In this document: positions 3,801-63,586 of the stretch, piece by piece
How the letters are laid out: each line of letters opens with the position of its first letter
Position numbering within the stretch: position 1 is the stretch's first letter
Assembly: GCF_964204645.1 (NCBI RefSeq)
Contig: NC_134028.1
Span: forward strand, 25,602,345 to 25,666,344
DNA length: 64,000 nt
Direction: 5' to 3'
Source of the DNA: Tubulanus polymorphus
Lineage: Eukaryota > Animalia > Nemertea
The notes under the pieces: model-generated
What the model was told of the DNA's origin: nothing
The model's input: the letters and a program-made list of their open reading frames with translations, nothing else
Database searches by the model: none
Program-made: the position numbers and the translations under genes

Positions 3801-6800
3801 GGGAGAGGGAGAGTTAGAGGGAGAGGGGGAGAGGGAGGGAGAGAGGGAGGGAGATAGGGAGAGAGAGGGAGAATGGGAGAGGGAGAGAGGGGGGAGAGGG
3901 AGAAAGGGAGGGAGAAAGGGGGAGAGAGGGAGAGGAAGAGAGAGAGAGGGAGAGAGAGAGAGAGAGAGGGAGATAGGGAGAGAGGGGGCGAGAGAGAGGG
4001 AGATAGGGAGAGAGAGGTGTAGCATGTGCTAATCCTGCGGCTGCTGTAACGCGAGCATCAACATCATCCCTACAGATCCGTCATCCCTGGATATATCAGG
4101 AGTTTGACTGAAAAGATTTCAAGGAAGCTCTGCATCGCTTTCAAAGCCTAATTACTATGGACTCCTCCTAAATCGGCACTTGCATATTTTGGTAGACTGG
4201 TAATTATGTGCTTTTGTAAGCAAATCTTTATCCTATACATTACCTAAACTCAGGCCTCAAACCGCCTCATTGGGTAAAAGATTCCACGTGCCAACTAACT
4301 GTACTGATTATGGAGTAGTTTACTTACAAACAAGACAACAATTTTCAATTGCCTACTTCTCAAAATTGAAGGAGTTCCAGGCATCTTTAAAAGCATTTTC
4401 CGTTCAAAAGGAGTTTCTAAGGATTGAAGGAGTCGTAGGGACCGTGATAGAGGTCTACGTCAACGCGAGAATCAATCTCGCTCGCTCACGCACGGCGACT
4501 AGATTCGAGAAAATCTGATTAACAATCGGCCAGTCGTCGGTAACGATTTCAATCGATCGTAACCGAATTCTCGGTCGGTCGAAAATTAAACGATTCACAA
4601 TTCGACGACGCGCTTAATTTCATACATGCATAATTCATCGGGGAAACTTCGTCGCTGGTTTATATTCACTAATTGGCCGAGACGCACGTTTTTCGTACGA
4701 ACGTCGATATTTTTTTGCGACTTTGATGATCGGAATAATAAAATTCATCGACGTCTCGACGAGAGGACCGCAGCGACTTCAAAGCTAATCAGGGATGTGT
4801 TCGCATACGTCGCGATGTACCTATAAACAACAAGACATCGTCATACGCGAGAAATACGGTTCACGCAGCGTTCTGCGCGTCGAGATCAAGCGATTTCGAG
4901 AACCTTTCGTACCTAGTGAAATAATCATTAATGATATTGACGGCGTTGTCGCCTTCGGGCGCGACTCATTATTAATCACCGATTAATACGTAACGAGCAA
5001 GAATCGATCGTAAGCCGGTCGTCTGAGCGTCGCGCAAACATCACTTAAACGACTGAGTCAGATACGATAACATTTCTATCAGAAACCTGCGCGTGAAGTC
5101 ATCACAGAGGCCGATCCAGGCTGGAAGAGGGGGTTCACCTCATATATGAAGAGGGCACTTTTCAGTCAAAACGGGTGCCTAAATGTACCTATAATTTGAC
5201 AATTTAGGTACTTTTTATGCACTTTTAGAGCCTATTGGATTAAGATCAGTAAGCAGCGGATAAGAAGCCGATATCAAGCGCATTTTCAGGGCGCCTGGTC
5301 AGAAAAGGGGAAGTTGAACGAGCCTCTCGATCTGCGACTGCATTTGGGAGACGTGCGCTTTGGACGTTTGAACCCATAGTATGGGATTGTTTTCCCCAAC
5401 CCCTCTGTGAGACTGACCCTCACATCTCATCTCATGACGTCTATCACCTGAGCGCTTTTCTACTAGTTACAAGCCACTACACAAAATATGGGTCATTCAG
5501 ATTCAAATTCAACTACTGCTGAGCAGAAATTGAATTATATCAAATGAGTTTTTTAACCGACACCCTGGTGTGACCTGATCCGACTGTTTAATCCTCACAC
5601 ATGATTTACCACTAATGGCAGACGACCAACCGAGGAACACTCCTGAGAGCACGAAGAGATTATCGAGATTATGAGACGAAACGATGAATCCAACACCAGA
5701 ACATTTATCAACACCCTATAAAATACAGCAGCGAAACATACATCACATCTCTAACAGAGCATTCATTCTCAACTTACGAATCTCATCTTGGACACGAATT
5801 CAATTCAAAATTCCGCAACACAAACACATATCACAGGCGTCTGCTGCCGATAATTGGCAAGAATCATATCGTAATCAGCCTAATAAGATGTCAAATACAC
5901 AATAACAAATTGCTAGTGAAGAGCACTGCAAACTAGCTAATGATAAAACCTAGATTTAAGCTCCTCAATCATAGATATTGGCAGCTAATTAACAAGATTC
6001 ATTTCACGACGAAAAATAGATTTAGCGAAATACCCGATGACGGACGCCGGGTGCTACAGACACGTCGCCTGTTACAACAATATTTCAAAACATCGAAAAT
6101 AATTGGATATTTCTAAATATGGTAGGGCGCCCACTTTGATTTGATTTTTCTCTGACTATTACCCGACATGCCGGTGTTTTCCCCGACTTGATCTGTTAAG
6201 ACACCGTGAAACACTCTGTGGAAACTAATTTTAAACACAATCTAGCAATCTCAATCAATTTCCCAGATCTTCGGCTTTCTTTTACAAAATTCCCTCATTT
6301 CCAGGTAAGAACCCAGCCTGTACATCCTCTACCTCAAGTCCTTCTCATGGGGGCGACTTAAAGGAAATGTTTTTGCGGATTAGTTCAAACGAATGGAAAT
6401 CAAAGGAAAAATATTTTCATAATGACTCATCCTTCAAGCAGAACAATGAGAAAATTCTCTTCTAAATGCTTGGTTTCAAACATTCCAGGGTCGCTACACA
6501 CTGGCTGGATATAAGAAGTGTCCGTATCTCTTTCATATTCCAATTACTGTAGTGAACTCCTAAAACAGTTTATCTAGTTAAACTGGTGGTTTTGTAAGCA
6601 ATCATTATCCTTTACACTACTTAAAGCCCCTTTGAAAGCATTTACATAAAGTTTCCAGAGTTTTTGAGGAATGAAAGAGTCGTAGGGACCCTACATGAAA
6701 ATTAATTTTCTACGTTTTATTTCTATTTTCAGACAGGAGTTGGGTTGTTGTGCGTGCTGTGTGTTGCGACATCACAAGCCCTAGCCTTCTCTCATTCCGC

Positions 6801-8082
6801 TAACGACGTTCTGACAAACGAACGCGGCACGAACAAAATCGGAAAAGATAAATGCGAATCGGACAAATGTAAATGTTTCCAAGGACCGATGGGACAGCCG
6901 GGGAATCACGGCATGCCCGGTTTACCGGGGACGAGAGGAGATGACGGAAAACATGGTAGCAAAGGAGAGAAAGGAGAGGCCGGACCAATAGGTCCACCAG
7001 GTAAATTCACATCTTCATGATTCATGGCTGGACTGGGTTCCTATAGATCAGAGTCCATAATTCCCCAACATTTCCATCGTTCATTCTCGACCTAGATAAA
7101 AGGAGTTTTAAGAAAAAAAAATTTCAAGGAAGCGTCCGTTTGACTTCCATAAACTCCTCCTAAATCGGTACTGTTTATCATTACTGTTTACCATTAATTT
7201 TGGTGGTTTTGTAAACAAATTTTTATCCTTCGCACTACCAAAACTCAAGTTCTAATTTGGTAACAACCTACCCGGTAATTGGGTTAAGAGAAAATCCTGG
7301 TCCCAATGGAAGCAGTTTAGGCGTAATCTACTGTACAACTACAAACATTTCTAATCGTCTATTTCTTAAAATTGATGGAGTTTTAAAGGAATTCCAGGTA
7401 TTTCTGCTCGAATTAAAAGAGTTACAAGCTCCTATTAAAGCATTTTCAATTTTAAATAGTTCAAGAAATCAAGCAGTCGTTCTGTGTTCCAAACATTCGA
7501 AAACTCGTTCTTGACCGTTGAATCTTTTTCTATTCAGGTGAATTGGGTCTCGCCGGAAACCGAGGTAAGAGAGGTGTTAAGGGCGAGCGAGGAGAGCAGG
7601 GAGAACGTGGAATCATGGGAGAACGCGGCGAACCGGGATTCCCCGGTTTAGACGGACAGCGCGGCGCTAAAGGCGACCCGGGTACGAACATACTCAACAA
7701 GATCGCGTTCTCGGCGAGTCGCAGCAAGAAACTCGGACCCGTGTTACAGAACACGATCATCGTGTTCGAGAACGTGCACACGAACATCGGCGACGGTTTC
7801 GACGTCTACACGTCGCACTTCGTGTGCAGACGCAACGGAACGTACGTGTTCATCGCGCACATACTCGGCCAGGAGAAACAGGACGCAGAGGCGTGGATCG
7901 TCGTCAACAATCAACACAAAGTACCGCTACACGGCGACGCCCGCGCCGGATACGGAACCGGAAGCAACACGATCATCTTACATCTGAATCTCGACGATCA
8001 CGTTTGGATCGAACTGAGCAAGAATACGGCCATTTTTTCCGATTACACAACGTTTTCCGGTTTTCTCTTATTTCCCGATTAA
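886..8082 (+). CDS. Secreted collagen-like + C1q domain protein (C1q/TNF-related, CTRP-like); exons 886-900, 6733-7000, 7538-8082
   Basis: ATG ATC GCA ATT CAG|gtaggt (phase 0) joins ttttcag|ACA GGA GTT to give a signal peptide [23 protein letters not shown]. Gly-X-Y repeats run across a phase-1 intron (7001-7537). The C-terminal gC1q domain has [44 protein letters not shown] near 8754 and 8767. Exon 1 is an inference. Confidence 0.88.
3097..3308. mobile_element. Head-to-tail dimer of a ~108-bp palindromic MITE (GGTCCAGTTCCACAG termini)
   Basis: Terminal inverted repeats ggtccagttccacagtt...aactgtggaactgg; two copies share a terminus; near-identical copies at 16683-16790 and 16833-16940. Confidence 0.85.
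3798..4017. repeat. Imperfect (GA)n polypurine tract
   Basis: About 220 bp of almost only G/A; explains the spurious ORF 3768-4025. Confidence 0.9.
4110..4445. repeat. Degenerate copy of a dispersed repeat (related segments at ~6580-6695 and ~7120-7480; its end matches the reverse complement of the MITE at 20284)
   Basis: Shared blocks tttcaaggaagc, actcctcctaaatcgg, ttgtaagcaa(a)tc.ttatcct and gagtcgtagggacc. Confidence 0.6.
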
Positions 8083-9290: not shown

Positions 9291-12262
9291 CTATTTTTCG
9301 TTGGTTTCTTTTCTTTGTTTTCCGGTGGACTTTTGATCTCTTCTTTGACTTTAACCGACGATTCAGAATCTCCTTTCTTCGAGGGCTTTTTAGCGACATT
9401 TTTAGGAGCTGTTGAAACGGAAATACCGAGTAAAATTATACAACTCGAAACGCTGTTTATCGAAAAAACATCGTACTTTTTATGAAAACATTTCCACAAT
9501 TTGGAGAAGCAGTTCATTTACTCTGCCATTATGGGACTGTAAACCATCGATAATAACAATAAGCCGAGAATTGGGAAATTGTCCACCCTCGACATTTCAA
9601 TAATTTTTGAAGAAATACATCCAAAAAGACGCAAATTCCAAGAGGATGAATGCCAATTTAGGGACATTCGAATTACTTCTGTGTTGCCCTCGATGAGAAG
9701 GTAGGAATATCCAGACCTATGAGACCTCTGACCACAGTAAGTCCCTGTAGGATGAACACATATTATAATTATGCCAATTTCAATCCACACTGAATCCACA
9801 CACATGTATAAATGGCCTCTTAAACTCTTTATCCATATACATATATCAAATCAGCCAACGTATGAATCCGAGAAATATCCATCAACCCTCATGTATGTTT
9901 TACTAATCATTAAAGGTTAGTAGTGTCTCATGATGTATAGTATTCACCTGCCCTGTGATTCTCTGGTGCTAGTAGTCGTCTAGTTATATCACTACCACAC
10001 AGAAAATAACAGGACACATGTTAGAGTGAAGAATTCCCGAGCGCGGGCGTCATTGATAATACGACTGCAAACACTGGTATCATTTGGTGCTAGCAGTTCG
10101 TATCGAAACTGACGCCAGCACGCGAATGATACCAGGATCTGCAATCAACAATCTCTAATCCTTCATCGCCGAGTCTTAAATTCGCAGGAAGGTTGTTATT
10201 TTCTGTAGCGAGCCCTGGTGTCATCTGGTGCTAGACATTCCTAACACGAATCCAGCACTCGGATACTACCAGGACGCGATACGAATTATCTGCAAAAACC
10301 TGTAAGATCCACTCGCAACGAATCATCAATAAAAATAGCAATTATTTCTTGTTTTACTCACCGAAAAAACTGTTCACTGCAGCAGATTCAACTTTAGGTT
10401 CTGAAATGAAGTTAGGTCCATGTATAACTAACACAGCAGACTCGCCATCTATCACATAATTACTGAACTAATAATAATACCTAGTTTAACGCTGTCCGTT
10501 TTCACTTTTTTCTTTAAATCGACAGGATTTTCATCAGTTTCCATAACGTTCTCGGACTTTACGGCGGGGGACTCGGATTTAGGGCAGACTTCAGCGGAGT
10601 CATTCTCCTCAGCGGTATCATCAGCCAGTTTAGCGACTCCGAAACTATTATCGTGGTCGTTCTCTTCAGTTTCATCATCCGTACGACTCTTCTTTAAGGG
10701 TTGCGCCAGCGGAGAAGTGAGTTTGTCTTGTTTTCGTTTGTTAGGCGTCGGTGTACCGTAACCACAAGATTTCCTAGCTGTATGAAATCAGATTTTTTTA
10801 TTTACCAAAAACAAAGTCCAAGAGACTGATTCTGTAGCATTTGAATGGGACCAAGTGATAGGTATCTTACTGATCAGGGAACCCAAAATTCTTGAAACCT
10901 ACTAGCTAGCTGATCCCGCACACCTGATCAGATGAGGATCCCCAGTTCGAAACCTCTCACCATTTGATATTAATTTTTGATAAATACAAATTTACTCTTA
11001 AATTTTTGAAGTCACGAGATATCTTCAGTGGAGACTGATTCTGCTCAAGAGGTTCATTGTGCTGTTCATCACCAACAAGAACAAGATTTTTTTAATTCCC
11101 CCGATTTTCAAATAGAGTTAGAATTACCGAATCTGTGAGAACCTTAAGAGATATTTACCAGTTTTACGCAATGGCGGAAGAGGTGTTGAGGGAGTGTTCG
11201 GCTCAGATTTAGAGACAGGACCTTTCATTGCGGACAGCGGAGTCTTCTCCTAAGAAAAAAATTCTTCATTATGTAAACACTGAGAAAGTTATGGGTTGAC
11301 CAGTTCATTCTCCATACTTATGAATGAGATTTTAAATTTTCTATAACTTTTCCATTGCCAGAAAGAAAAACATACAACATTTCCACAAATTTCCAGGGCC
11401 TACAGGGAAAACTTCCCACTTCCCAAAACCTGCTAGAACCCTGATTTGAGATGTGAAATGAAGTTGCAGCTGATGCTGTCTGTCAGATGCGCGCATCATT
11501 AACAAGGCACATCAAAGCAGGCTGTGATATGATAGAATATGGAAACATTTCACAGCCACTGTGATGTCCATGATAATGATCAGACGATGAAGAATGTTGT
11601 TAGATGTTGATCGGGTTGATCGGGTGACGAACTCTGGTGAAGAAATTTATGTGAGAAAATGTAGGAACAATAAATCCCTGCTTTTTGTTGATCAGAAAAA
11701 CCTGTCTGAAATATCAAGGTAGCATATTAGACCTCATTAACAACAAATAAATTAATTGATTACCTGTTTTTTCGAAGAATTGTTGTCTTGTTGAGGAGTT
11801 TTGAATGGGCTTTTCGTTTTCGGTTTGGGAGTCTTAATCTCCTCGGGCTTCTCTTCGCTTTTATCATCATTTTCTTCCTCTTCATCACTACTTTCAATTA
11901 TTCGACGACTCTTTTTTTTCGAAGTCGACTTCTTCACCGGCGAGTCTAACTCAGCTCTAGGAGGGCTGGCTGCTTGTTTTGACTTGTTACTTTTCCTTAT
12001 CATAAATAAAGAGTGCGAAATTCTATGAGCAACGTGAACTACCTTAGCACTTGATACTAAGCGGTGTAAAGACAGACTACACACTTACGGTTTATCGCTC
12101 TTGTTTTCATCCAAATTACGATTTTTATCTTCTCTTTTCGGCGCAAAGAACGACCTTTAATATCAGATATATAACCAGGTCGCGTTAATAGAGCCACTTA
12201 ACCTGAAATAAGACCGAAAATCGACAATAATATCCTACTCACATAATGGATGGTTGCGCCAT
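9291..12262 (-). CDS. LIG1: DNA ligase I, N-terminal regulatory region; exons 12262-12243, 12154-12089, 11995-11764, 11249-11159, 10777-10481, 10400-10362, 9408-9291; gene continues to the left of the window
   Basis: Phase-consistent GT-AG exons translate MAQPSIMSFFAPKRE..., matching the LIG1 PIP box (human MQRSIMSFF). They also give RRIIESSDEE, PLRKTARKS (human PKRRTARKQ) and NSFFAPK...VKEE (human SSFFTPRK...VKEE), which precedes the DNA-binding domain. Confidence 0.85.
9949..10016 (-). ncRNA. pre-miRNA, miR-29 seed family; predicted mature 3p UAGCACCAGAGAAUCACAGGGC (9971-9950)
   Basis: Hairpin UGUCCUGUUAUUUUCUG...CAGAGAAUCACAGGGCA with G-U pairs on the minus strand; mature starts with U and has the AGCACCA seed. 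Confidence 0.75.
10066..10143 (-). ncRNA. pre-miRNA, miR-29 seed family; predicted mature 3p UAGCACCAAAUGAUACCAGUGU (10092-10071)
   Basis: Long stem CUGGUAUCAUUCGCGUGCUGGC / GCUAGCACCAAAUGAUACCAG with a basal extension UGCAGAU/GUUUGCA; AGCACCA seed. Confidence 0.8.
10205..10282 (-). ncRNA. pre-miRNA, miR-29 seed family; predicted mature 3p UAGCACCAGAUGACACCAGGGC (10233-10212)
   Basis: Stem GUCCUGGUAGUAUCCGAGUGCUGGA / UCUAGCACCAGAUGACACCAGGGC with a basal extension; AGCACCA seed. Confidence 0.8.
11495..11580 (-). ncRNA. mir-2: pre-miRNA, miR-2 family; mature 3p UAUCACAGCCUGCUUUGAUGUGC (11529-11507)
   Basis: Two mismatches to canonical miR-2a UAUCACAGCCAGCUUUGAUGAGC; star arm GACAUCACAGUGGCUGUGAAAUG and an extended basal stem AUCAUUA/UAAUGAU; lies in LIG1 intron 3 on the same strand as the host. 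Confidence 0.92.
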
Positions 12263-12815: not shown

Positions 12816-15154
<2,339 letters not shown>

Positions 15155-24296: not shown

Positions 24297-25535
24297 AGAA
24301 ATAGTAACCTTGACGTACTTGAGACTTTTCTGTGTTGTATATCCGCGCGATTTATCTGTTATTTATTATAGAATATTCTATTTTCTAAGTGTATTCATAC
24401 GTATTTTACGTCTGATTGTAACTCATTATTTTGGAGACTATTTTGCCCTATGAGATTTTGTGATATAAATATACATTAGTTTTACCTAGTGAACACGTTT
24501 TTATTTTTTGCTGTTTTTATTTTATGAATGAATAAATTTGAATATATAAATATTTCCATTAATCTTTTTTTTCTCGTGACGGATATCATTTATTCCACTT
24601 TATATACACATGTGAAGATACACTTTCGAGACGTCATCACGGTACGAATTGACTGCTTAGACACGATGAGAGCAGGTGCTGCAGCACGAGGACTCGTCAC
24701 ATATAAGCTGGGTCGAAGACAAAAGCACTAGTATCCAAACATACATTCAAAGATTGGATGGTAGAGTAGAGCTTTAGTTTTGGACCCCAGCTGCATTTGA
24801 CTAGTCCATGTGGTTCAATTTCCAACAAAATTCGGTAAGTTCGACCGCCGATCGCACGATTAGTCTGTACTTCGAATTCCGATTTCAAAATGAAACCCCC
24901 TGTTTCGCTCCCGGCAGGTGCGGTGGGTTATATGCGGGACACTAAATTAAATCATATCGAGTAAAATCTACCAATCAAATAAATAACAGGGTCAATTGCT
25001 ATCTTAATAAAAAATACCTATGGAATAAATTTGTATTTGAATTAGTTGCCCAATTACTCTCACTACAAAACTAAGAAGATAATAAAGTCACGCAATTATC
25101 ATTATCAGGTTGACATCGTATATATATAAGTATTTATCGCATGTCTGCTTATTATGTGTGTCAGCTGTTAGGCTTCGCCAGTTATATCCACAGAGTCTAT
25201 ACCGTATACGCATAGCGATCCTTGTTAAAGTGAGTCATATAAGTAGTAAGTATGTTTGTGAGCATCAGTTTTACGCATTGCCATCCTATCATTTTTTACT
25301 AGATTTGAACTTGGAGTAATTTACTCAATTATCATGTCCAGATAGTTACTCTTGTTGAAATCATCACCAAGCGGAATCTCACCGCGTCGAGGTGGAGGAT
25401 GGTCTTGGGGTTTTCTTTCGAGATATCACGCTGTCGCATTAGTCACTGGGTTTAAAATTGTCAATGATACTTTCGATTGTCATCGCTATTTGGCTATTTG
25501 CTGATAAATATGATGTTTACATCTTTTCAGTCAAA

Positions 25536-26012
25536 ATGATCCAGGCTCCATATTCGTCGTTTAAGACAATGCCCGATGGGTCATCGTCACACTTTGCAAC
25601 ATCGTTCATTCCCGCGGGGACGGTCATCCTTAACCAAACCGGTAACACATCTCAGAAACACGGCACCGTGCACTCGATTCAAGTCACCCCGGACCTTCAT
25701 GTCGATACTCTCGCTCCGTTACGGTTTACGAACCATTCCTGTAACGCGAATAGCCGCATAGTTATAGAAACCACGCCCGAAATCAGCATCAAGTTAATCG
25801 CCCTCCGTGATATCAACGAAGGGCAAGCGGTCACATACCCTTACTATACTTCCGAGTATAAGATGGTCGCTCCTTTCGATTGCCAATGCGGTCATGGAAA
25901 ATGTCTGGGGAAAGTTCAAGGCTACTATTTCTTAGAAGATAAATCGATGGTTCCTGATACGTTGCTGTCTTCTTGCGTGGTTACATTACGTGACCAAGAA
26001 AGTCGGAAGTGA
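25536..26012 (+). CDS. Small SET + post-SET domain protein (putative lysine methyltransferase), paralog 1
   Basis: RFTNHSCNANS, LIALRDINEGQAVTYPY and post-SET FDCQCGHGKCLG. The ATG follows the acceptor tcttttcag|tcaaa; TATA at ~25120, UTR donor gtgagt at ~25230, AATAAA at ~26020 and ~26085. Confidence 0.88.
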   Translation: MIQAPYSSFKTMPDGSSSHFATSFIPAGTVILNQTGNTSQKHGTVHSIQVTPDLHVDTLAPLRFTNHSCNANSRIVIETTPEISIKLIALRDINEGQAVTYPYYTSEYKMVAPFDCQCGHGKCLGKVQGYYFLEDKSMVPDTLLSSCVVTLRDQESRK

Positions 26013-28134
26013 TTCCTTGTAATAAATATCAAACGAGATTGAATGATGTGTTTAAAATGTTTACTATAGATATGAAGTAACTTCAATAAAAAAAAGATTG
26101 AAACGAAGAAAGCGTTTTTATTTTAATCGTATGTCCATCTAAATGGGTAAAGGTGAAGATAGATCTTAAAAGAGAGATTCCACAAGGAGAGGATGACATG
26201 TAATGAAGGCAACATACTGAAGCATACTCGGCGAACTTCGTAGCTAGTCGGAACTTATAATCGAACGCACTATAGTTCGGTTGTAACGCATTTCACAGTG
26301 TCGGTCATAGGTCTACCGTGTTCAATCCCGTGGTCGACTATTTCCGGACTAAATTACAAAATATTGAATGAAAAACAGTTGCAATTGTTAACTTGTTTTC
26401 TTCATGCTCGGATCCCTAGGCATAGATTCACTGAGCAATATACGTAGAGAAAATGGCCTGACCAAATCGAAGGACAGGCGGAGGTCATGTATTGATTGAC
26501 CTTTGGACAAATTCGCGAGTTCGACTTTATACTGAGAAAGAAATATGGAACGTGAGATTATTGTTACACGTATATTTATTTACCTATATTCGTTTTGGAC
26601 ACATTTTGCGGTTTAATGTCGAGTGTATGGCAAAGATCAACACATTCGTTCTTATATTTTTCCAACATGTTTGTTCAAGAATAAAAATAATCTTCTGCCT
26701 TATTGCACTCTGTATCGAAATTATCTCCCGTCTTTGTGGTCTAATATCTTTTAAGGTTAGACAATTGATTTCTTTAAACAGCGTTGGCAAATCGCCTGAC
26801 GAATCCGTGAAAGGATATATAGTCCGCAAGAGTTGCCAAAAATGCAAATGATGCAGACTTTCTGGTTCACAATAGAAACCGTCCATGAAATGAAAAGTGC
26901 AACTTTTTAATGATATGATATGATATATACCAGCAATTAAAAGGAATACAAAATTACGTTAGGAATACATGGAACATGACATGATTGATGATAGGGACCT
27001 GAACAGAGCCATAAAGGTTGTACACTAACTAGACCGTTCAGGCCCCTAGAAAAAGTTTAATGATAAGTAATAACGATAACAACTCTTTTGTCTTTTTTTA
27101 AAGATTTTAAAGATTTTATGAAAAATATTTATAGACTGAAAAAAGATTGGAAAAAGATAGCGATTTTCTACTCGTAAAACTAGTTTTACATATCGAAGCG
27201 ACCTGAAGAGGAATACTTTTTGAATCTGAATGTTCGATCGTATGATTAATGTATCGACCGGTACTCCACGTGACCTTTCCAGATGGAAAAATACTAAACC
27301 CTCTACAGACGAGTGTTTCAGAACTCGATTCCAGAACTTATTGACATTTCGGCTGGGTATTCTCCGATAACGATCAGGTCATAGTGCTAAAGGCTACAGA
27401 GTAAAGGTTGACAACTGTGCGACCTCATCAACTATAAATACCGTATCGTAGCTTATAACTTTACACATTTACTGCTGAGCGATCGCCTTCGTCACCATCC
27501 AGCACGGAAAATATTTCACTGGTAGGAAATCCATTTCTTTACTTTAATTTCACATACAAATCAAATTGAATGCACAATGCGTACTGAATCAATTCAAATT
27601 AACAAACTTATTTACGACTAATTTCATTTCATCAAAAATGATTCTGAAATTCACCAAATTAATTGATAAGTCGATTAAGGAGATACATATCTATTCAGAA
27701 ATAAATCAACAGTAATATTCTACTCTATACATTTTCGAAGGTTTCTTGAATTCAATTCATCGCAAATTTTAATAAAGATTCTACTTCCCTAAAATCAACT
27801 GAGTTTCCATTATTTCACTAATTAGATACAGTTCCTTTTAATCAAATTTATATGATCATACACCCCTTGAATAAACTGTATATATACGACGTATTCTGGA
27901 TAAATGTTATATTATATAGACCTTCGTGGTCTGAAGCAAATAGATAAATGAATGATAAATGAATGAAATGAACAAAAAATAATATAATGATTACGTACGG
28001 ATATCTCAAAGTATGATTTACTACGGAAATTGAATGTATGCATATATGCAAAACTCGAAGCTTAGATAATTCAGACTACAGACTATAATAGACTAGATAT
28101 ATATATGCTATCCTTTTATTTTTCAGACGTAAAA

Positions 28135-28626
28135 ATGAACGGCGTGCTTCCAACCACCAAGCTTTCAAAGGCTGTTAAACGCGATGATGATTCGTACGGA
28201 CACATTGCGACGCGTTTCATTAAAAAAGATGAGTTGATTTGCAGCGTTCCGTACAACAAGACGCAGTCGCACGCTACCAAATATTCCGTTCAGATCGGTG
28301 TAAACGAACATTTTGATTGCCCGTCGCCGCTCATGTATACCAATCACGCATGTGTCCCCAGCGCCAGAATCGATTTGAATCGAACGCCGAATAGTCTGGA
28401 CCTCATGGCGACGCGCGACATACCGGTAGGCGACGAAATTACGTTTTGCTACTTGACGACCGAATACAAAATGGCGACGCCGTTTCTTTGCGGCTGCGGC
28501 CACGACGAATGCCACGGAAAGATCCAAGGTTACTACCACGCCAAAAACAAATCGCAATTACCAGACGATCATATTTCTCCGGCCGTTAAAGAATTAGCTC
28601 GAAACATAATTTGCAATGACCAATAA
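28135..28626 (+). CDS. Small SET + post-SET domain protein, paralog 2
   Basis: MYTNHACVPSA, LMATRDIPVGDEITFCY and FLCGCGHDECHG. The ATG follows the acceptor tttttcag|acgtaaaa; TATAAATA at ~27433 and donor gtagga at ~27522. Confidence 0.88.
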   Translation: MNGVLPTTKLSKAVKRDDDSYGHIATRFIKKDELICSVPYNKTQSHATKYSVQIGVNEHFDCPSPLMYTNHACVPSARIDLNRTPNSLDLMATRDIPVGDEITFCYLTTEYKMATPFLCGCGHDECHGKIQGYYHAKNKSQLPDDHISPAVKELARNIICNDQ

Positions 28627-39546: not shown

Positions 39547-40108
39547 GACGAGCTGCATCAACACCACATCCAACATCACCATCAACATGTACTCGAGTAT
39601 CAACAGTCCTCGTTACAGGAAACCCAGGAACAGGTGGAAAATCATCAGACTGATATGACGTCATCTTCGACGTCACCTGTTCCGATAAGTCTGATGAAAG
39701 TGAATGATAACATTGAAGATGTCACTGTTGACATGCAACGACGTTTGACACCACCGATGAATGTGGCAATGGCATCGATGCCTGTTAGTTCTCCAGATGT
39801 AACAGCGGTTGTCACTCCTGTCACCATCCAGATGCCCACATCGAGCCCACCGCTGGCAGCCCACATGACCCCTGCATCGACTCCAGTCACGCCTATCAGC
39901 GCGCATCATCAAGCCATGTCAATGGCTAGCCCGATGGCCGCTCTAACCCCGATGACGCCCGTGTCCAGTCAACAGACCATGCAACAAATGCAACAAATGC
40001 AACACAACGGAGGATATTCAATGTCATCGCATGTGGTCCAAATGACGTCACAAGTACCCCAAATACAGATGCATATGGTGTCCGAACAGCCAATGAATCG
40101 AAGAAAAG
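37444..40108 (+). CDS. Candidate Pax2/5/8 N-terminus A: micro-exon 37444-37456 (MGMS) plus a 711-nt exon 39398-40108 (PTDLS motif, polyQ/His, S/T/P/M-rich)
   Basis: Strong acceptor tttttttcatttcag, an open 237-codon exon, and a phase-1 donor AAAG|gtaggc that joins the paired exon as ...[14 protein letters not shown]. The micro-exon and the link to Pax are inferred from phase. Confidence 0.65.
39487..39546 (+). repeat. Coding (CAG)n polyglutamine tracts
   Basis: Two CAG runs separated by CAC CAT CAA. Confidence 0.9.
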
Positions 40109-54931: not shown

Positions 54932-55097
54932 GTCATGGAGGAGTTAACCAGTTGGGTGGTGTATTCGTCAACGGTCGACCACTTCCAGATTTGGTCCGAC
55001 AGAGAATTGTCGAATTGGCCCATCAAGGAGTCAGACCCTGCGACATCTCCAGACAGCTTCGAGTTTCGCACGGTTGTGTCAGCAAGATTCTCGGCAG
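54932..55097 (+). CDS. Pax2/5/8: Pax2/5/8 paired-domain exon 1 (PAI subdomain)
   Basis: [56 protein letters not shown], with the Pax2/5/8-type Q-R-H residues in SRQLRVSHG. Confidence 0.96.
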
Positions 55098-57490
55098 GTG
55101 AGCTCGAATAGAATATAGATAATTACGGAGCGAAATTGATTCGGGAGAGAAATCCCGAAATTTCCCGAAATATCGCGTGGATGTTTCGAGGTTTTTCGAG
55201 CGTATGATCTCGATTAATCTCGTGCGTCGTAAATCTCGTTAAATTTCGAAATAATAACGCGTCATATTTCATCCGGGTTTCTTTTGATTTTTAATTGCGA
55301 TTTAAAATAACGATTTGTTATCTTTCGATTGAAATCCGTTATGACCGAAAAACGCGCCATTCATTCGAATTCGTCTGAAACAACAAACACAATATTTCGA
55401 TCGTCGTCCCGCGGGATATTTTCATTTCTATTCCTCGTTTTATAATCAACCGTAAGCGTCGTCGACGTTTCAGATTAACAGGAGGAGCGTTTGTGTTTTG
55501 TTTTGTCACCAGACATTTGAGGTTGAAAAATTGAATTAAATTACATGTGAATTAATAATCGAATCGGCGTCAAAGAGCCATATGGTGACATCTAGAGAAA
55601 AGACAAGCCTTTAGGGAGAGAACGCGTATCAAACAATAGATTTCATCACAGAGGCTCCGACTGCAACATCCAGCATTGACACTGCTTATATTTTCAAAGT
55701 TTCTGAAATGCCACTCTCTGGGGCGGAGAACAGATGATTAATTTAAAACCTTCTATATACAGAATTTAAAAGATTAAAATCGAATTTTATTCATCAAGAA
55801 TCAAAATCAAAATACACGATGTTTCGAACTGTCAATAGAGATCATCGTCTGGTGTGACTTTGGTCAATTCACATTTTTAATGCTTTATATTCTAAGTTTT
55901 TACATTATATCTAGAGCTTTTTTCCTCAATCGAATTGAGGAAAAAAAAGTCGGGAAGATACACGATATCCGTGTATGAGAATCTGTAAGAAATCCGTCAA
56001 TAATTTCAGCTGAAGATGGAACGTTCTTGAGTAAAACAGTTTATATTTCGAGCAGCTGTTATGAAATAGGGATTTTACATAGTTTAACCGTAAAAATGTA
56101 TTTCTTATATTTCTTTAAAATACGTTCGGATATGAACTAGTAGGCATCATCAGGCGTGCTGATACAGAATGAATTCATACAACAACCAGACAAACTGAGT
56201 GAGTGATACAAATTAGAAAAGGGGAATACGTTAAGTTAAAGTTGCCCGAAATATTAACTCATTTACTCAAGAAGCTTTCCATTTTTGCTGAACTGATTGT
56301 CGGGTTTCTTGTGAATTGTTTCAATCTAACGTGTAAAATATCACAACACAGAAAGCGCTTAGCTTTCACTATACTCTTTCACTAAAATGTCGATATTTTC
56401 AATTTTCTTTCACATCTATTCACTTGATCGCAGCTGGTGCCCGGGTTCGAGTCCACTTCTATAGACTGGACATTGTTTACAACTCAATGATATCACAGTC
56501 GATACTATGTATATAGAGATCATACGACACCTGTTCAGGCTTTTGTTTTCTATTGATACTCGCCTCGTGGTCATTGTGTTACATCTCGCCGGACTAAAAG
56601 CTGTTTCCCGCCGCTTGGTCACAGTCCGTGCCTATCTCCTGTATAAGCTTACACATGCGTGTCAATGTATAGTGTAGCTGGGTTTCCAAATGATCAGAAA
56701 ATACATTCGAAAAATAGTGATCAACGGTGCGAACAATGTCATGGTGCGAATAAAAATGATATTCGATGGTTTGATTGACCTGCTGTGTTCGGATGATGAC
56801 CCGATGGTGCCATTGTAATGAATTTTATTAACCGTAGTTAATGATGGCTTCGTTTATCGACAAAATAAGAAAAATTGATATTATATAGAAAATGGATTTC
56901 CAGTATTACATTATCCATTATTAGTTCTAAGGAAGGCATAATATACATGATGACATTTTAAAAATTCCGTCTAATTTGCCCACTATCAAAACTAGCAGGA
57001 AAATCGGAAAAGCATCAATTTATTTGAAAATGCAGATGCAATTCGCCTCTCAAATGATTTTCGATGGATTTCGGTGTGGTATACGGCATCATGGTTAACA
57101 GTAGTGAACGCATTGATCAGCACTACTCTGACATCGGTCTGGCTATTATTGACTCCACGTCGTGAATATGATCAATTGTCAGATAATTGTATGAGAAGGA
57201 CCTCCTCGGTCGCTTCTAATCCCATCTGATTAACTCAATAGCCAGTTGATGTGCCTTTAAGAGGTGATCAATTAATTCGTTTGCTAACAGAACAGACCGG
57301 CGCGGCGTGCCGTCGATTTTAAATTGTTTTATCGTTCATTAGTGGCTTCCGACTGCGGGGGCAACAAATCAAACTTCAAAAGATCTCGCGCGATTTTTCG
57401 GAAAAAACCTGTCGTTTTCTTATTTCATATCTCGATTCTTAGCTCACGTGATTTAAGCGTTTATTTTGAAACGTGAAATTATTTTTGCAG

Positions 57491-57688
57491 GTACTATGAG
57501 ACGGGTTCGATAAGGCCCGGTGTTATCGGTGGTTCGAAACCTAAAGTGGCCACGCCCAATGTTGTAGAGGCCATTCTTAAATATAAAGCTGAAAATCCTA
57601 CAATGTTTGCCTGGGAGATTCGCGATATGCTTCTCACCGAAGGCGTCTGTTTACAAGACAATGTTCCCAGCGTCAGTTCCATAAACCG
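57491..57688 (+). CDS. Pax2/5/8: Pax2/5/8 paired-domain exon 2, copy A (linker + RED subdomain); missed by the ORF track
   Basis: tttttgcag|G TAC TAT...AAC CG|gtaaga; 198 nt, open; [66 protein letters not shown]. Confidence 0.92.
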
Positions 57689-57746
57689 GTAAGAATGTTT
57701 TACCTACATGTTTTTCGCTAACAACAATATTAACCGTGGTTTTCAG

Positions 57747-57944
57747 GTATTACGAAACCGGTACTGTGAAACCGGGCGTGATCGGTGGTTCGAAACCGAA
57801 AGTAGCCACCCCTAAAGTCGTCGACGCGATATGCACGTACAAACGAGAGAATCCAACTATGTTCGCATGGGAAATAAGGGATAGGTTACTGGCCGAAGGG
57901 GTCTGTGACCAGGAAAACGTGCCTAGCGTCAGTTCAATAAATAG
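57747..57944 (+). CDS. Pax2/5/8: Pax2/5/8 paired-domain exon 2, copy B
   Basis: ttttcag|G TAT TAC...AAT AG|gtaaga; 198 nt; [66 protein letters not shown]. Confidence 0.95.
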
Positions 57945-60386: not shown

Positions 60387-60664
60387 AATCGTGCGAAATA
60401 AGGCTGCCGAGAAGGCCAAACATCAGCATCAACATCAGCAGCAACAACACACGCCGGGTCAACATCCAGGTCCGGTGCACAGTCCGAACAGCGGGGCCGT
60501 GTTAAACCCTCACACGCCGCCGCCGGAACATTTACTATCGAGACAAGGGTCGTATTCGATCAGCGGGATATTAGGTATCCCTCATCCGAACGGCGCCGCG
60601 CACACCCCGCAACAAGCGCACACCGACATAAACAGCAATAAACGAAAAAGAGAACCCGATGTTG
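60387..60664 (+). CDS. Pax2/5/8: Pax2/5/8 exon with the end of the paired domain, the octapeptide and a basic NLS-like motif
   Basis: IVRNKAAEKAK...GSYSISGILGIP (octapeptide/eh1)...NKRKRE; phases 2 and 1 are consistent with the neighbouring exons. Confidence 0.92.
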
Positions 60665-63191
60665 GTAAGTTGAATAATAATAATTCATGCAAAAATATTC
60701 TCAAATCGCTTTCCGAGAATCGGACGAAAAGAAGAAATTATACGACATCATAAAACGTCGTGAAATTGTGTTTTTTTTATTGTCTCGGGGAGTTTGTGAA
60801 TGAATTGTTGATCTAGAAATAAAACTAAATGCAAAAACGTGCGAAATAAACCGCGCTCAAGCGAAAGTTGCGACTGTAGCCGCGGCGGATTATAACACTC
60901 ATTTTTTATGATACGTGGCGCGATAGTTTTTTGTTTATCGGTTCGTTTCGAGAGACGACGTCGATATACTAGGGAAATAAACCCCAGCGACAATACGACC
61001 ATCGACCCGGTGCCTCTTGTTTTTATGCCGGCATTCTCCATTACAAAAACCGATCCGAATAGAAGCCGTGGCGACATGTATAAACGCCATGAGTATTGAC
61101 TGCCATTTCCTCTTTCCTCTGCGTCGCGGTCTTTAATGGCCGCTGAGAAAACACGACCGACATGAACAAACGACATTAACTCGACCGAAATTACCCTTCT
61201 AATTGTTAAATAATGGAATCCAATCCGATATTCGTATTTTCATATCGACGCTAATAGAATGGTTATTAGCAATCTTGTATGACTGATTCGCTGTGATAAA
61301 GATATTGCAACGCATGCCGGTTATCGTGATTGCCCCTTTCAGTCGCGACCGGCATCAATCTTCTAGCCGCGATCTGTAATCCAAATTCGCTCAGACAGCC
61401 GCATTCTGGCCTATTATCTACCGAAATTAACGGATTTATGACAATATCCGCCGTCGAAATCATATCCAATAGTAATCCATTGTCGCCGGAACTTATCGGG
61501 TCAATTTTTTATTTACTCATTCGGACACATCTGTATAGACTGCATCGCGATATGAATATTTAATTTTTTGAAAATTAATTTTTGCTCTTCGTTCCAAACC
61601 AGCGGTTCGTTTCAAAAGTAGCTATAAATATTGAATCAGTCGGTATGCTTTTTTTTTTCATTAGATCACGACAAGGTGCTCGTTTGTCCCGAGAGTTCGT
61701 ATTTTTTCCTGTCTATTCACACGGGTCTGCAGATTTCATCGAAATTTTCGAAATATTCCCGAGTCCTTTGTGGGAACGATATATCATTTTTCAACTCGTG
61801 CGTCCCGCCAGAAGCTCCATGGGAATTTCATTGTAATCAAAATTCGATAATCGAATTTAGTCCTAATTTCAAAAGACAATGAAGCACAGTTTGATATGAA
61901 CTATGCTCGAGACGCGTAGAACACGGAAGTTTATTGTTTCTGCACATTCGACCGTTTAGCTAGGATAATATTACGCTACTCGATTTCAGTTCGGAAGCCG
62001 ACAGTGGAGTTAAACCTGAAACAATTTCTACTCGAGTTACTCCGGTGCTTAATCGGGTTGAAAATCGCACTGTCGGCTGGATAAAAGCTCGGCAACTTTC
62101 CGGCGACGAAAGCTGTCAAGTTTTCCCCGAACTCGCTAAACCGTATCGGCTGCTATAATGGACGGCTTCGACGTTCCGTCGTTTTCGGGGGTGACAGAGG
62201 GCGACCTTTCGAACAATAGTCGACGTAAGATATCGCACATTTCGAGTTGTTATCGGCACGTACGAGTATCGGCGTGATTTGTACGCGCACGTGACTAGGC
62301 GACGGTTTCGAACTAACTGAAGCAAAATTAATACAAAAATTACCCCTTAAACGATCGTCGTATTAAAAGAGTCAATGACTAACAGTGAAATGTTGCCTCT
62401 TATAGTAGCCCCCGGTAGCGAAGCTGGACGCATAAGTTTTGCGTTGAGAAAATCATTTTCTTCGAGAATTTATTAACCGTCCGTGGACGTGGATGGATCT
62501 TTTCGCCGAAGGGCAAAGGAATGAATTTATTTGCAATTTTGCCGCCGTCCTAGCAGGGGTCGACATAAAAACAGCATATAATTGCCGGTTTCGAAAACTC
62601 TAGCACACCACAACATGCGGTAACATTATGGTTGCTATGCGTTGGTTGAGTTTATTTCGTTAGAGCCATTGCCCGGTCTCCGCTATCCCATTTACGGCGA
62701 CAAATAAAAACAGTTTAAAATCGTGTTTATCTCATAAAACACGACGGTTTTCATCGCTGTCCGTTTCGAACCCATTCAACAAACCGTCGACAAACCCCTC
62801 GATTGCTAACTGAGGCGTTAATACAGAAAAATGCCGTCGACAAAGATTGTCTTGCTTTGGCGACTACTGAAGAGGTTCGGACACTCCCACAAGCCGTGTA
62901 CCCATTGTACGGGACGATGTTGTTTGCGAAAAATGTACTTGAAATCGATGTTCTTTACTTCCGCTCCGTGCGGTAGAATATCAAACATATGCCACGGAAA
63001 TCCCGCGAACTTTTGATATTTTTCCTTGAGTTTTTTTCAATCGGTGAAACCAATATCGATATCATTTATAGACGCATTATAAGTAGATATTATAGAATTT
63101 AAGCGCCCAGTCCTTATTTAGACTAATGTATAGATACGAACTGATGATAAAATAGAATCGCAAATAGAATATCAAATATTTGTTTTTGCAG

Positions 63192-63586
63192 TACCGAACG
63201 GTGACCACGAAGCTAACAATAATGAACAAAGACCCGATTTAGAGGTAGGTCTGAAATCATGCTTTCGAACTTGTCCTCGAAGATGAAATTAGATTTTCTA
63301 ATAATTTTTTGTTATTTTGTAAAGGGCAAAGAAGGTGATTTATACGGACCTTTGAGTATGTGGTATAAAAAAGCGAAACCGGAACCGGAAATGCAATCGG
63401 CATCGATGGGAAATGTGTACTCTATGCAATATCAACAGTACATACCAGTATCAGCGACAACCGCAGAACCTCAGAAAAACAATTCCGATTATAACATGCA
63501 AAACCAAATAGTCATGACGTCACAGTCTAACGGCGCATCAGACGGACAAAATACAAACAACAGCGGCCATTACAGTCCAACCATGG
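63192..63586 (+). CDS. Pax2/5/8: Pax2/5/8 downstream exons 63192-63244 and 63325-63586; the gene continues past the window
   Basis: Phase-consistent VPNGDHEANNNEQRPDLE|GKEGDLYGPLSMWYKKAKPEP...HYSPTM G|gtaagt. Confidence 0.75.

Follow-up and report, generated by a model that had tools for sequence, protein, structure and literature searches.

Two tandem exons for the linker and RED subdomain in the Pax2/5/8 gene of the nemertean Tubulanus polymorphus are probably spliced one at a time

In a stretch of 64,000 nucleotides (nt) from the nemertean Tubulanus polymorphus (NCBI RefSeq assembly GCF_964204645.1, contig NC_134028.1, positions 25,602,345 to 25,666,344 of the forward strand; referred to as the window, to which all coordinates refer) we analyzed a Pax2/5/8 gene that carries two tandem copies, A and B, of the exon encoding the linker and the RED subdomain of its paired domain. 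We consider it likely that the two copies are spliced one at a time, so that the gene gives two proteins of the same length. In the proposed mechanism the Pax2/5/8 transcript would carry both linker and RED exons, the spacer of 58 nt between them would be too short to be spliced and thus either A or B would be included, and the two same-length proteins would be distinguished chiefly by the outer surface of RED and by the start of the linker.

Using an isoform from the nemertean Lineus longissimus as query, a search retrieved the T. polymorphus protein XP_074648388.1, whose Tubulanus cluster consists of two members, isoforms X1 and X2 with 574 amino acids each. The constitutive exons of both match the window at 100%, and the two isoforms are distinguished by the 12 sites of the swapped exon and by no others, with X1 carrying exon B and X2 carrying exon A. 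According to Pfam both contain the complete paired domain (PF00292, positions 1–125) and show no homeobox match, and the nearest solved structures in the PDB rank in the order Pax5, Pax8, Pax6 and Prd. The octapeptide YSISGILG and a KRKR signal are encoded in the exon 60387–60664. Lophotrochozoan Pax2/5/8 has been described as having a KR-rich signal after the octapeptide Y[TS]IxxILG and as being without a homeodomain (PMC5333810), and from these encoded features the gene is assigned to Pax2/5/8 in its lophotrochozoan form. For transcript evidence four contig sets, which are contigs and not raw reads, were aligned to the window, and spliced contigs were present in run X4 only, whose record bears no RNA label yet holds such contigs. 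The layout of the gene, with flanking exon bounds at 55097 and 60387 that agree with the initial annotation of the window, is as follows.

39655–40108, + strand: first coding exon of the RefSeq model, residues 1–152, ending in phase 1 (tblastn of P0204/P0261, 100%)
54932–55097, + strand: constitutive exon, PAI subdomain, paired-domain positions 2–56 (spliced contig, run X4)
57491–57688, + strand: alternative exon A, linker and RED, positions 57–122, SIR/L85/A89/M102 type, RefSeq isoform X2 (without cover in run X4)
57689–57746, + strand: spacer intron, 58 nt, GT...AG
57718–57734, + strand: two predicted branch-point-like motifs, adenines at 57721 and 57733
57747–57944, + strand: alternative exon B, linker and RED, positions 57–122, TVK/R89/R102/D110 type, RefSeq isoform X1 (contigs of run X4)
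60387–60664, + strand: constitutive exon with the end of helix 6, YSISGILG and KRKR (contig of run X4, tblastn)
63192–63244, + strand: downstream constitutive exon (joint 60664–63192 in run X4)
63325–63586, + strand: further downstream constitutive exon, separated from the preceding one by an intron of 80 nt (joint skipping 80 nt in run X4; loose end at 63586), the gene extending past the window

In run X4 one contig joins exon B to 60387 and skips 2442 nt bounded by GT and AG, and two further downstream joints are present, namely 60664–63192 and the one skipping 80 nt. The contig of the upstream exon ends in 14 letters, 13 of which match the start of B and 9 the start of A. A transcript form without A and with B is thereby shown, the upstream join being seen as a short overhang only. 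Another contig of this run begins with seven spacer letters ahead of B, which fits partly spliced RNA and is uninformative on A. Together with the same-length RefSeq pairs of Tubulanus and Lineus that differ only in this exon, these contigs, which skip A and splice B, support the original proposal that one gene makes two paired domains by splicing.

Exons A and B are 198 nt long each, have the same phase, lie between CAG and GTAAGA, and encode 66 residues each, corresponding to Pfam PAX positions 57–122 from the end of helix 3 through the linker and RED to the middle of helix 6. Sequence and Pfam positions thus bear out the description in the initial annotation, which had been made from the letters alone, of two intact exons with canonical splice sites that each encode linker and RED. 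They differ at 58 of 198 nucleotides (29%), concentrated at synonymous sites; the 66 codons comprise 20 without any change, 34 with synonymous and 12 with non-synonymous differences, with a proportion of synonymous differences (pS) of 0.83, which is saturated, and of non-synonymous differences (pN) of 0.12. The annotation had the total of 12 differing residues right and omitted E/D, T/A and D/E from its list, and the recognition helix, helix 6, is the same in both copies, as it had claimed. Because 198 is a multiple of 3, inclusion of A, B, both or neither preserves the frame, which also holds for the double inclusion (PAI-RED-RED) it had considered; retention of the spacer leads to an in-frame stop right after A. 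No third copy was found in the window by tblastn. An old duplication with both copies under purifying selection, as first suggested, is confirmed at the level of these sequences by the pN against the saturated pS and by the grouping of both copies with their counterparts in Lineus.

In L. longissimus, which belongs to the Pilidiophora while Tubulanus belongs to the Palaeonemertea, 11 isoform sequences were found, nine of A-type and two of B-type, and two same-length isoform pairs differ at nine sites each, all within the exon. Between Tubulanus and Lineus the A copies share 59 and the B copies 61 of the 66 residues, compared with 56–57 in cross comparisons and 54 and 57 within the species; between-species identity above within-species identity has been used as a criterion for a common origin (PMC8373072), and the nemertean pair shows exactly this pattern. 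The A/B tree that had been proposed as a check was built twice, first with LG+G4 and then with a mixture model, excluding Pax9 from both; type 1 of the barnacle and five unnamed rows were also excluded from the second. In both trees A pairs with A (support 93/83 and 93/97) and B with B (91/76 and 85/82) across the two species, these groupings being unstarred. Judging from this, the exon was duplicated before Palaeonemertea and Pilidiophora diverged. The A copies have R64, L85, A89 and M102 in common. Of 160 other distinct exons none has L85 and one has M102, with R at position 102 in 153 of them. The Logan protein P0027, a divergent Pax2/5/8 with A89 and M102, groups with A (92/85) and could extend the age of this copy.

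Comparable pairs were found in crustaceans. Two tandem linker and RED exons are present in four gene models (Portunus, Petrolisthes, Amphibalanus and Procambarus), and RefSeq isoforms of equal length that are distinguished by this exon alone are listed for Panulirus (14 and 16 differences at its two loci), Macrobrachium nipponense (13 differences) and Scylla (15 differences); Hyalella has both exon types with identical flanks. The single exon seen in chelicerates and in a millipede is similar to type 1 (SIRPG, YKKQN), and insects group with type 2 (S[YF]KAG, YKREN) with starred support of 97/92 and 96/91 in the two trees. All 26 named insect hits among the best 120 matches have SFKAG, as do 10 of 10 members of the Cloeon cluster, and the crustacean pair offers an explanation for this unusual linker of insect Pax2, as it groups with the second crustacean copy. 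A single type was seen in Lingula (12/12), Ptychodera (12/12), a tick cluster (11/11), Centruroides (5/5), Liolophura (4/4) and Paramacrobiotus (4/4), among the listed members of Haliotis (15 of 26) and Mytilus (15 of 46), and in five of the seven Octopus members, the other two being without the exon; as these are annotations and not genome searches, the counts cannot prove that a second copy is absent. The sequences compared include no named annelid or flatworm. Some single models are also worth recording. In Panulirus ornatus, which has several Pax2/5/8 loci on one contig, two proteins (P0445 and P0281) stand out: a low-quality model has a hybrid exon with a type-1 start and a type-2 end, matching the product that unequal crossing-over between the copies would give, and in another isoform both copies are skipped in frame. 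The Idotea baltica model P0299 shows only the first 19 type-1 residues ahead of a full type-2 exon, which is decay, an assembly gap or a mis-prediction.

To see where the exchanged residues lie, isoform A was modelled with AlphaFold using a 20-row alignment. The paired-domain blocks reached a predicted local distance difference test score (pLDDT) of about 80–93 and the linker 52–57, the rest being disordered; helices span residues 229–241, 247–256 and from 268 onward. Against a 58-residue Pax5 chain (1k78_I, taken as RED on 77% identity) the model gave a template modelling (TM) score of 0.86 and a root-mean-square deviation of 2.5. The differences between A and B fall on isoform residues 213–215 at the start of the linker, 230–240 in helix 4 about one turn apart, 253 and 256 in helix 5, and 261 and 263 in the following loop; A has uncharged residues where B has R89, R102 and D110 (paired-domain numbering). 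Helix 6 (residue 268 onward) and the 12-residue core of the linker are identical. Pax6 touches the minor groove of DNA with its linker and the major groove with RED (PMC4901127, PMC2995082). As the recognition helix is identical we do not claim an altered base readout; from the model we infer that the A-specific patch of L85, A89 and M102 faces outward, and we slightly favor the view that the swap would alter partner binding, stability or affinity and not the base sequence that is read. The change of the crustacean linker from IRP to YKA would be a better candidate for altered DNA reading. The two nemertean exons might also be mutually exclusive and functionally interchangeable, being kept for regulation or by entrenchment. 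The identical recognition helix and linker core fit this idea, as does the variation of most of the differing positions among single-exon species, but type-specific residues are conserved in two nemertean classes, including the loss of the arginine that is nearly invariant at position 102, and in crustaceans the linker types IRP and YKA hold across decapods, an amphipod and a barnacle. We therefore regard interchangeable copies as a possible, rather doubtful explanation.

How could the use of both copies in one transcript be prevented? The spacer is indeed the shortest intron traced in the gene, as first noted, with 58 nt compared with 80, 2393, 2442, 2527 and about 14,800 nt for the others. 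It contains two branch-point candidates, CTAAC with the adenine at 57721 (intron position 33) and TTAAC with the adenine at 57733 (position 45); the initial annotation had correctly pointed to the first as lying near the donor and had not mentioned the second. In vertebrates a steric limit of about 50 nt between branch point and donor has been reported (PMC5740500, PMC7969005), and both candidates fall below it, a limit that may not be the nemertean one. The Procambarus model reads through 17 residues between its copies, which corresponds to about 51 nt if it is plain read-through, the model being flagged as low quality. Since a short spacer also appears to be present there, steric exclusion by the 58-nt spacer with its candidate branch points is favored, with somewhat better than even confidence. 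Enforcement of exclusion by a frameshift and nonsense-mediated decay is ruled out, because 198 is divisible by 3 and the frame cannot enforce it. A search for docking and selector pairing, which was run without a control, gave only complements of 11–14 nt in AT-rich introns and none in the spacer, and the fold of 57660–57790 is not unusually stable (z 0.49), so that control of exclusion by RNA structure is unsupported. At 57688–57704 the predicted structure of lowest energy pairs the donor of A with a stretch 10 nt downstream.

Alternatively, A and B could be independent cassettes that are included together, giving PAI-RED-RED, or both skipped. Double inclusion and double skipping would stay in frame, the four tandem gene models from Portunus, Petrolisthes, Amphibalanus and Procambarus read in this way, and one Panulirus RefSeq isoform omits both copies. 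On the other hand, neither of the two Tubulanus isoforms and none of the 11 Lineus isoforms holds both, the decapod RefSeq isoform sets listed have at most one copy per isoform, and the 58-nt spacer has its branch candidates near the donor. Also no A–B joint was found in the four contig sets, A being uncovered in the spliced run, or in the 13 nemertean isoform models. Independent cassettes are thus unlikely, and A and B are likely to be mutually exclusive.

Several points weigh against one-at-a-time splicing of an old exon pair. Flies and nematodes, and small-intron animals in general, can splice introns of the size of the spacer. Five of 515 proteins have two exon starts in one model, namely the four crustacean models with complete tandem copies and a partial one, and these may reflect genuine co-inclusion or errors of gene prediction. 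A tree in which the two Tubulanus copies are constrained to group is worse by 11–12 log units with p values of 0.09 and 0.12, and no topology test reached p<0.05. The RefSeq isoforms are automatic models, and no contig shows exon A spliced in, A being uncovered in X4, the sole run with spliced contigs. As contigs drop rare variants, this missing cover is no evidence that A is silent. Inclusion of exon A is argued for by the RefSeq models and its conservation, and we hold its regulated use to be very likely.

If A were a conserved duplicate that is rarely used or silent, B would be effectively constitutive in Tubulanus. The contigs of run X4, which show B only, would agree with this, as would the longer branch of A in both trees, its slightly weaker pyrimidine tract (10/20 compared with 12/20 for B) and its donor being paired in a local hairpin, though the z-score of the region is 0.49. 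Against it stand a pN far under pS, the rare residues M102, L85 and A89 that the A copies of Tubulanus and Lineus have in common, the A-type exon in nine of 11 Lineus isoform models, the A isoform modelled by RefSeq in Tubulanus and the dropping of rare variants from contigs, which makes a silent A quite improbable. That the duplicate arose as an assembly artefact by haplotype duplication or a mis-join is already refuted by the orthologous pair in Lineus and is next to inconceivable given a divergence of 29% mostly at synonymous sites, a 4112-nt contig of run X1 (possibly the source of the window itself) covering both copies, and a contig of run X2 crossing the spacer.

Whether mutually exclusive A and B exons go back to one duplication shared with the crustaceans was addressed by sequence comparison. 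Tubulanus B is nearer to type 2 (58 of 66 residues, 54 for type 1), and Tubulanus A is equidistant (54 and 53). Approximately unbiased (AU) tests rejected none of the origin scenarios (six with p 0.08–0.31, three with p 0.12–0.49), and a deep split in the LG+G4 tree was lost when the mixture model was used. On grounds of parsimony we favor two duplications, the crustacean pair having more probably arisen by a separate duplication of the same exon, independent of the nemertean one. Only tentatively can it be considered that a mutually exclusive linker and RED pair has existed since the protostome ancestor, with phyla keeping one copy, the other or both. If so, the exon copy of insect shaven/D-Pax2 would not be the one that chelicerates and myriapods have, protostome Pax2/5/8 domains would not be one-to-one orthologous, and nemerteans and crustaceans would have kept an ancient, regulated switch of the paired domain.

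Elsewhere in the window, a repeated element with very high contig depth lies at 55740–55860 in the intron upstream of exon A. On the minus strand two exons at 13500–12820 presumably belong to ribosomal protein S15a, and 12084–9200 holds exons of a lysine- and acid-rich protein which we take to resemble the N-terminal part of a factor in replication or repair; here an intron of 80 nt is predicted at 10480–10401 (minus), with a CTAAC adenine only 11 nt from its 3' end. The plus strand holds what is presumably a collagen-repeat protein with a C1q-like end (6706–8082) and two related open reading frames (25443–26012 and 28066–28626) that we assume to resemble SET-domain proteins.

Each gene with a paired domain is taken to have a single, almost unvarying version of it. 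An either-or swap of linker and RED that is conserved in crustaceans and in two classes of nemerteans would provide natural, matched protein pairs that isolate the contributions of both, a question that has been termed elusive (PMC4345280), and paired-box probes and paired-domain trees in these taxa may mix two exon lineages. The Tubulanus event has already been modelled by RefSeq as the pair XP_074648388.1/XP_074648389.1, without name, mechanism or function, and comparable automatic pairs exist in Lineus (XP_064634298.1/XP_064634315.1) and Panulirus (XP_071529071.1/XP_071529072.1). Such an exon pair was not found for any Pax gene in the literature searched, with most subscription journals and supplements lying outside the search, nor in the accessible parts of PMC12486386, PMC4244043, PMC5333810 and PMC8373072. 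This agrees with the initial annotation, to which no whole-subdomain swap was known; the paired-domain splicing described so far consists of insertions and deletions (PMC4488758).

Swapping of homologous DNA-binding exons within one transcription factor gene is familiar from other families. In vertebrate TCF3, E12 and E47 arise from mutually exclusive basic helix-loop-helix exons, with a tested functional difference; the likeness to the Pax2/5/8 pair lies in the swap itself, TCF3 exchanging a basic helix-loop-helix exon. TCF3 is also named among the holders of mutually exclusive exon clusters (PMC5740500). As in OGDH exons 4a/4b, whose mutual exclusion is enforced sterically (PMC7969005, PMC5740500), the branch point would lie less than about 50 nt from the upstream donor, with the differences that branch points were mapped in vertebrates there and are predicted here, and that the whole intron has 58 nt here. 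In chordates splicing also alters the paired domain of one gene, as in Pax6(5a) and in medaka Pax2 with a 21-bp exon and a 24-bp extension (Fabian et al., PMC4488758), by insertions or deletions in PAI and, in the passages considered, not by a swap of homologous linker and RED exons. The kind of event is already known from FoxP, the Pax instance being one for which we found no description in the literature. In FoxP/FoxP1 the exon encoding the latter half of the forkhead domain is duplicated in tandem and alternatively used (Santos et al., PMC3002244). The Pax2/5/8 pair resembles it in that the exon duplicated in tandem also encodes the latter half of a DNA-binding domain, in the alternative use, which is probable for Pax2/5/8, in the old origin, and in that one copy has been lost from certain lineages or paralogues. 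A specificity switch of the FoxP type is not seen in Tubulanus, as helix 6 is identical and the differences lie at residues 213–263. The two systems thus differ in the domain concerned, forkhead there and paired domain here, in that FoxP isoforms differ in base-contacting residues whereas the Pax2/5/8 copies share the recognition helix, and in that FoxP has one bilaterian origin while the Pax2/5/8 pair is patchy, with neither one origin nor two being rejected by the AU tests.
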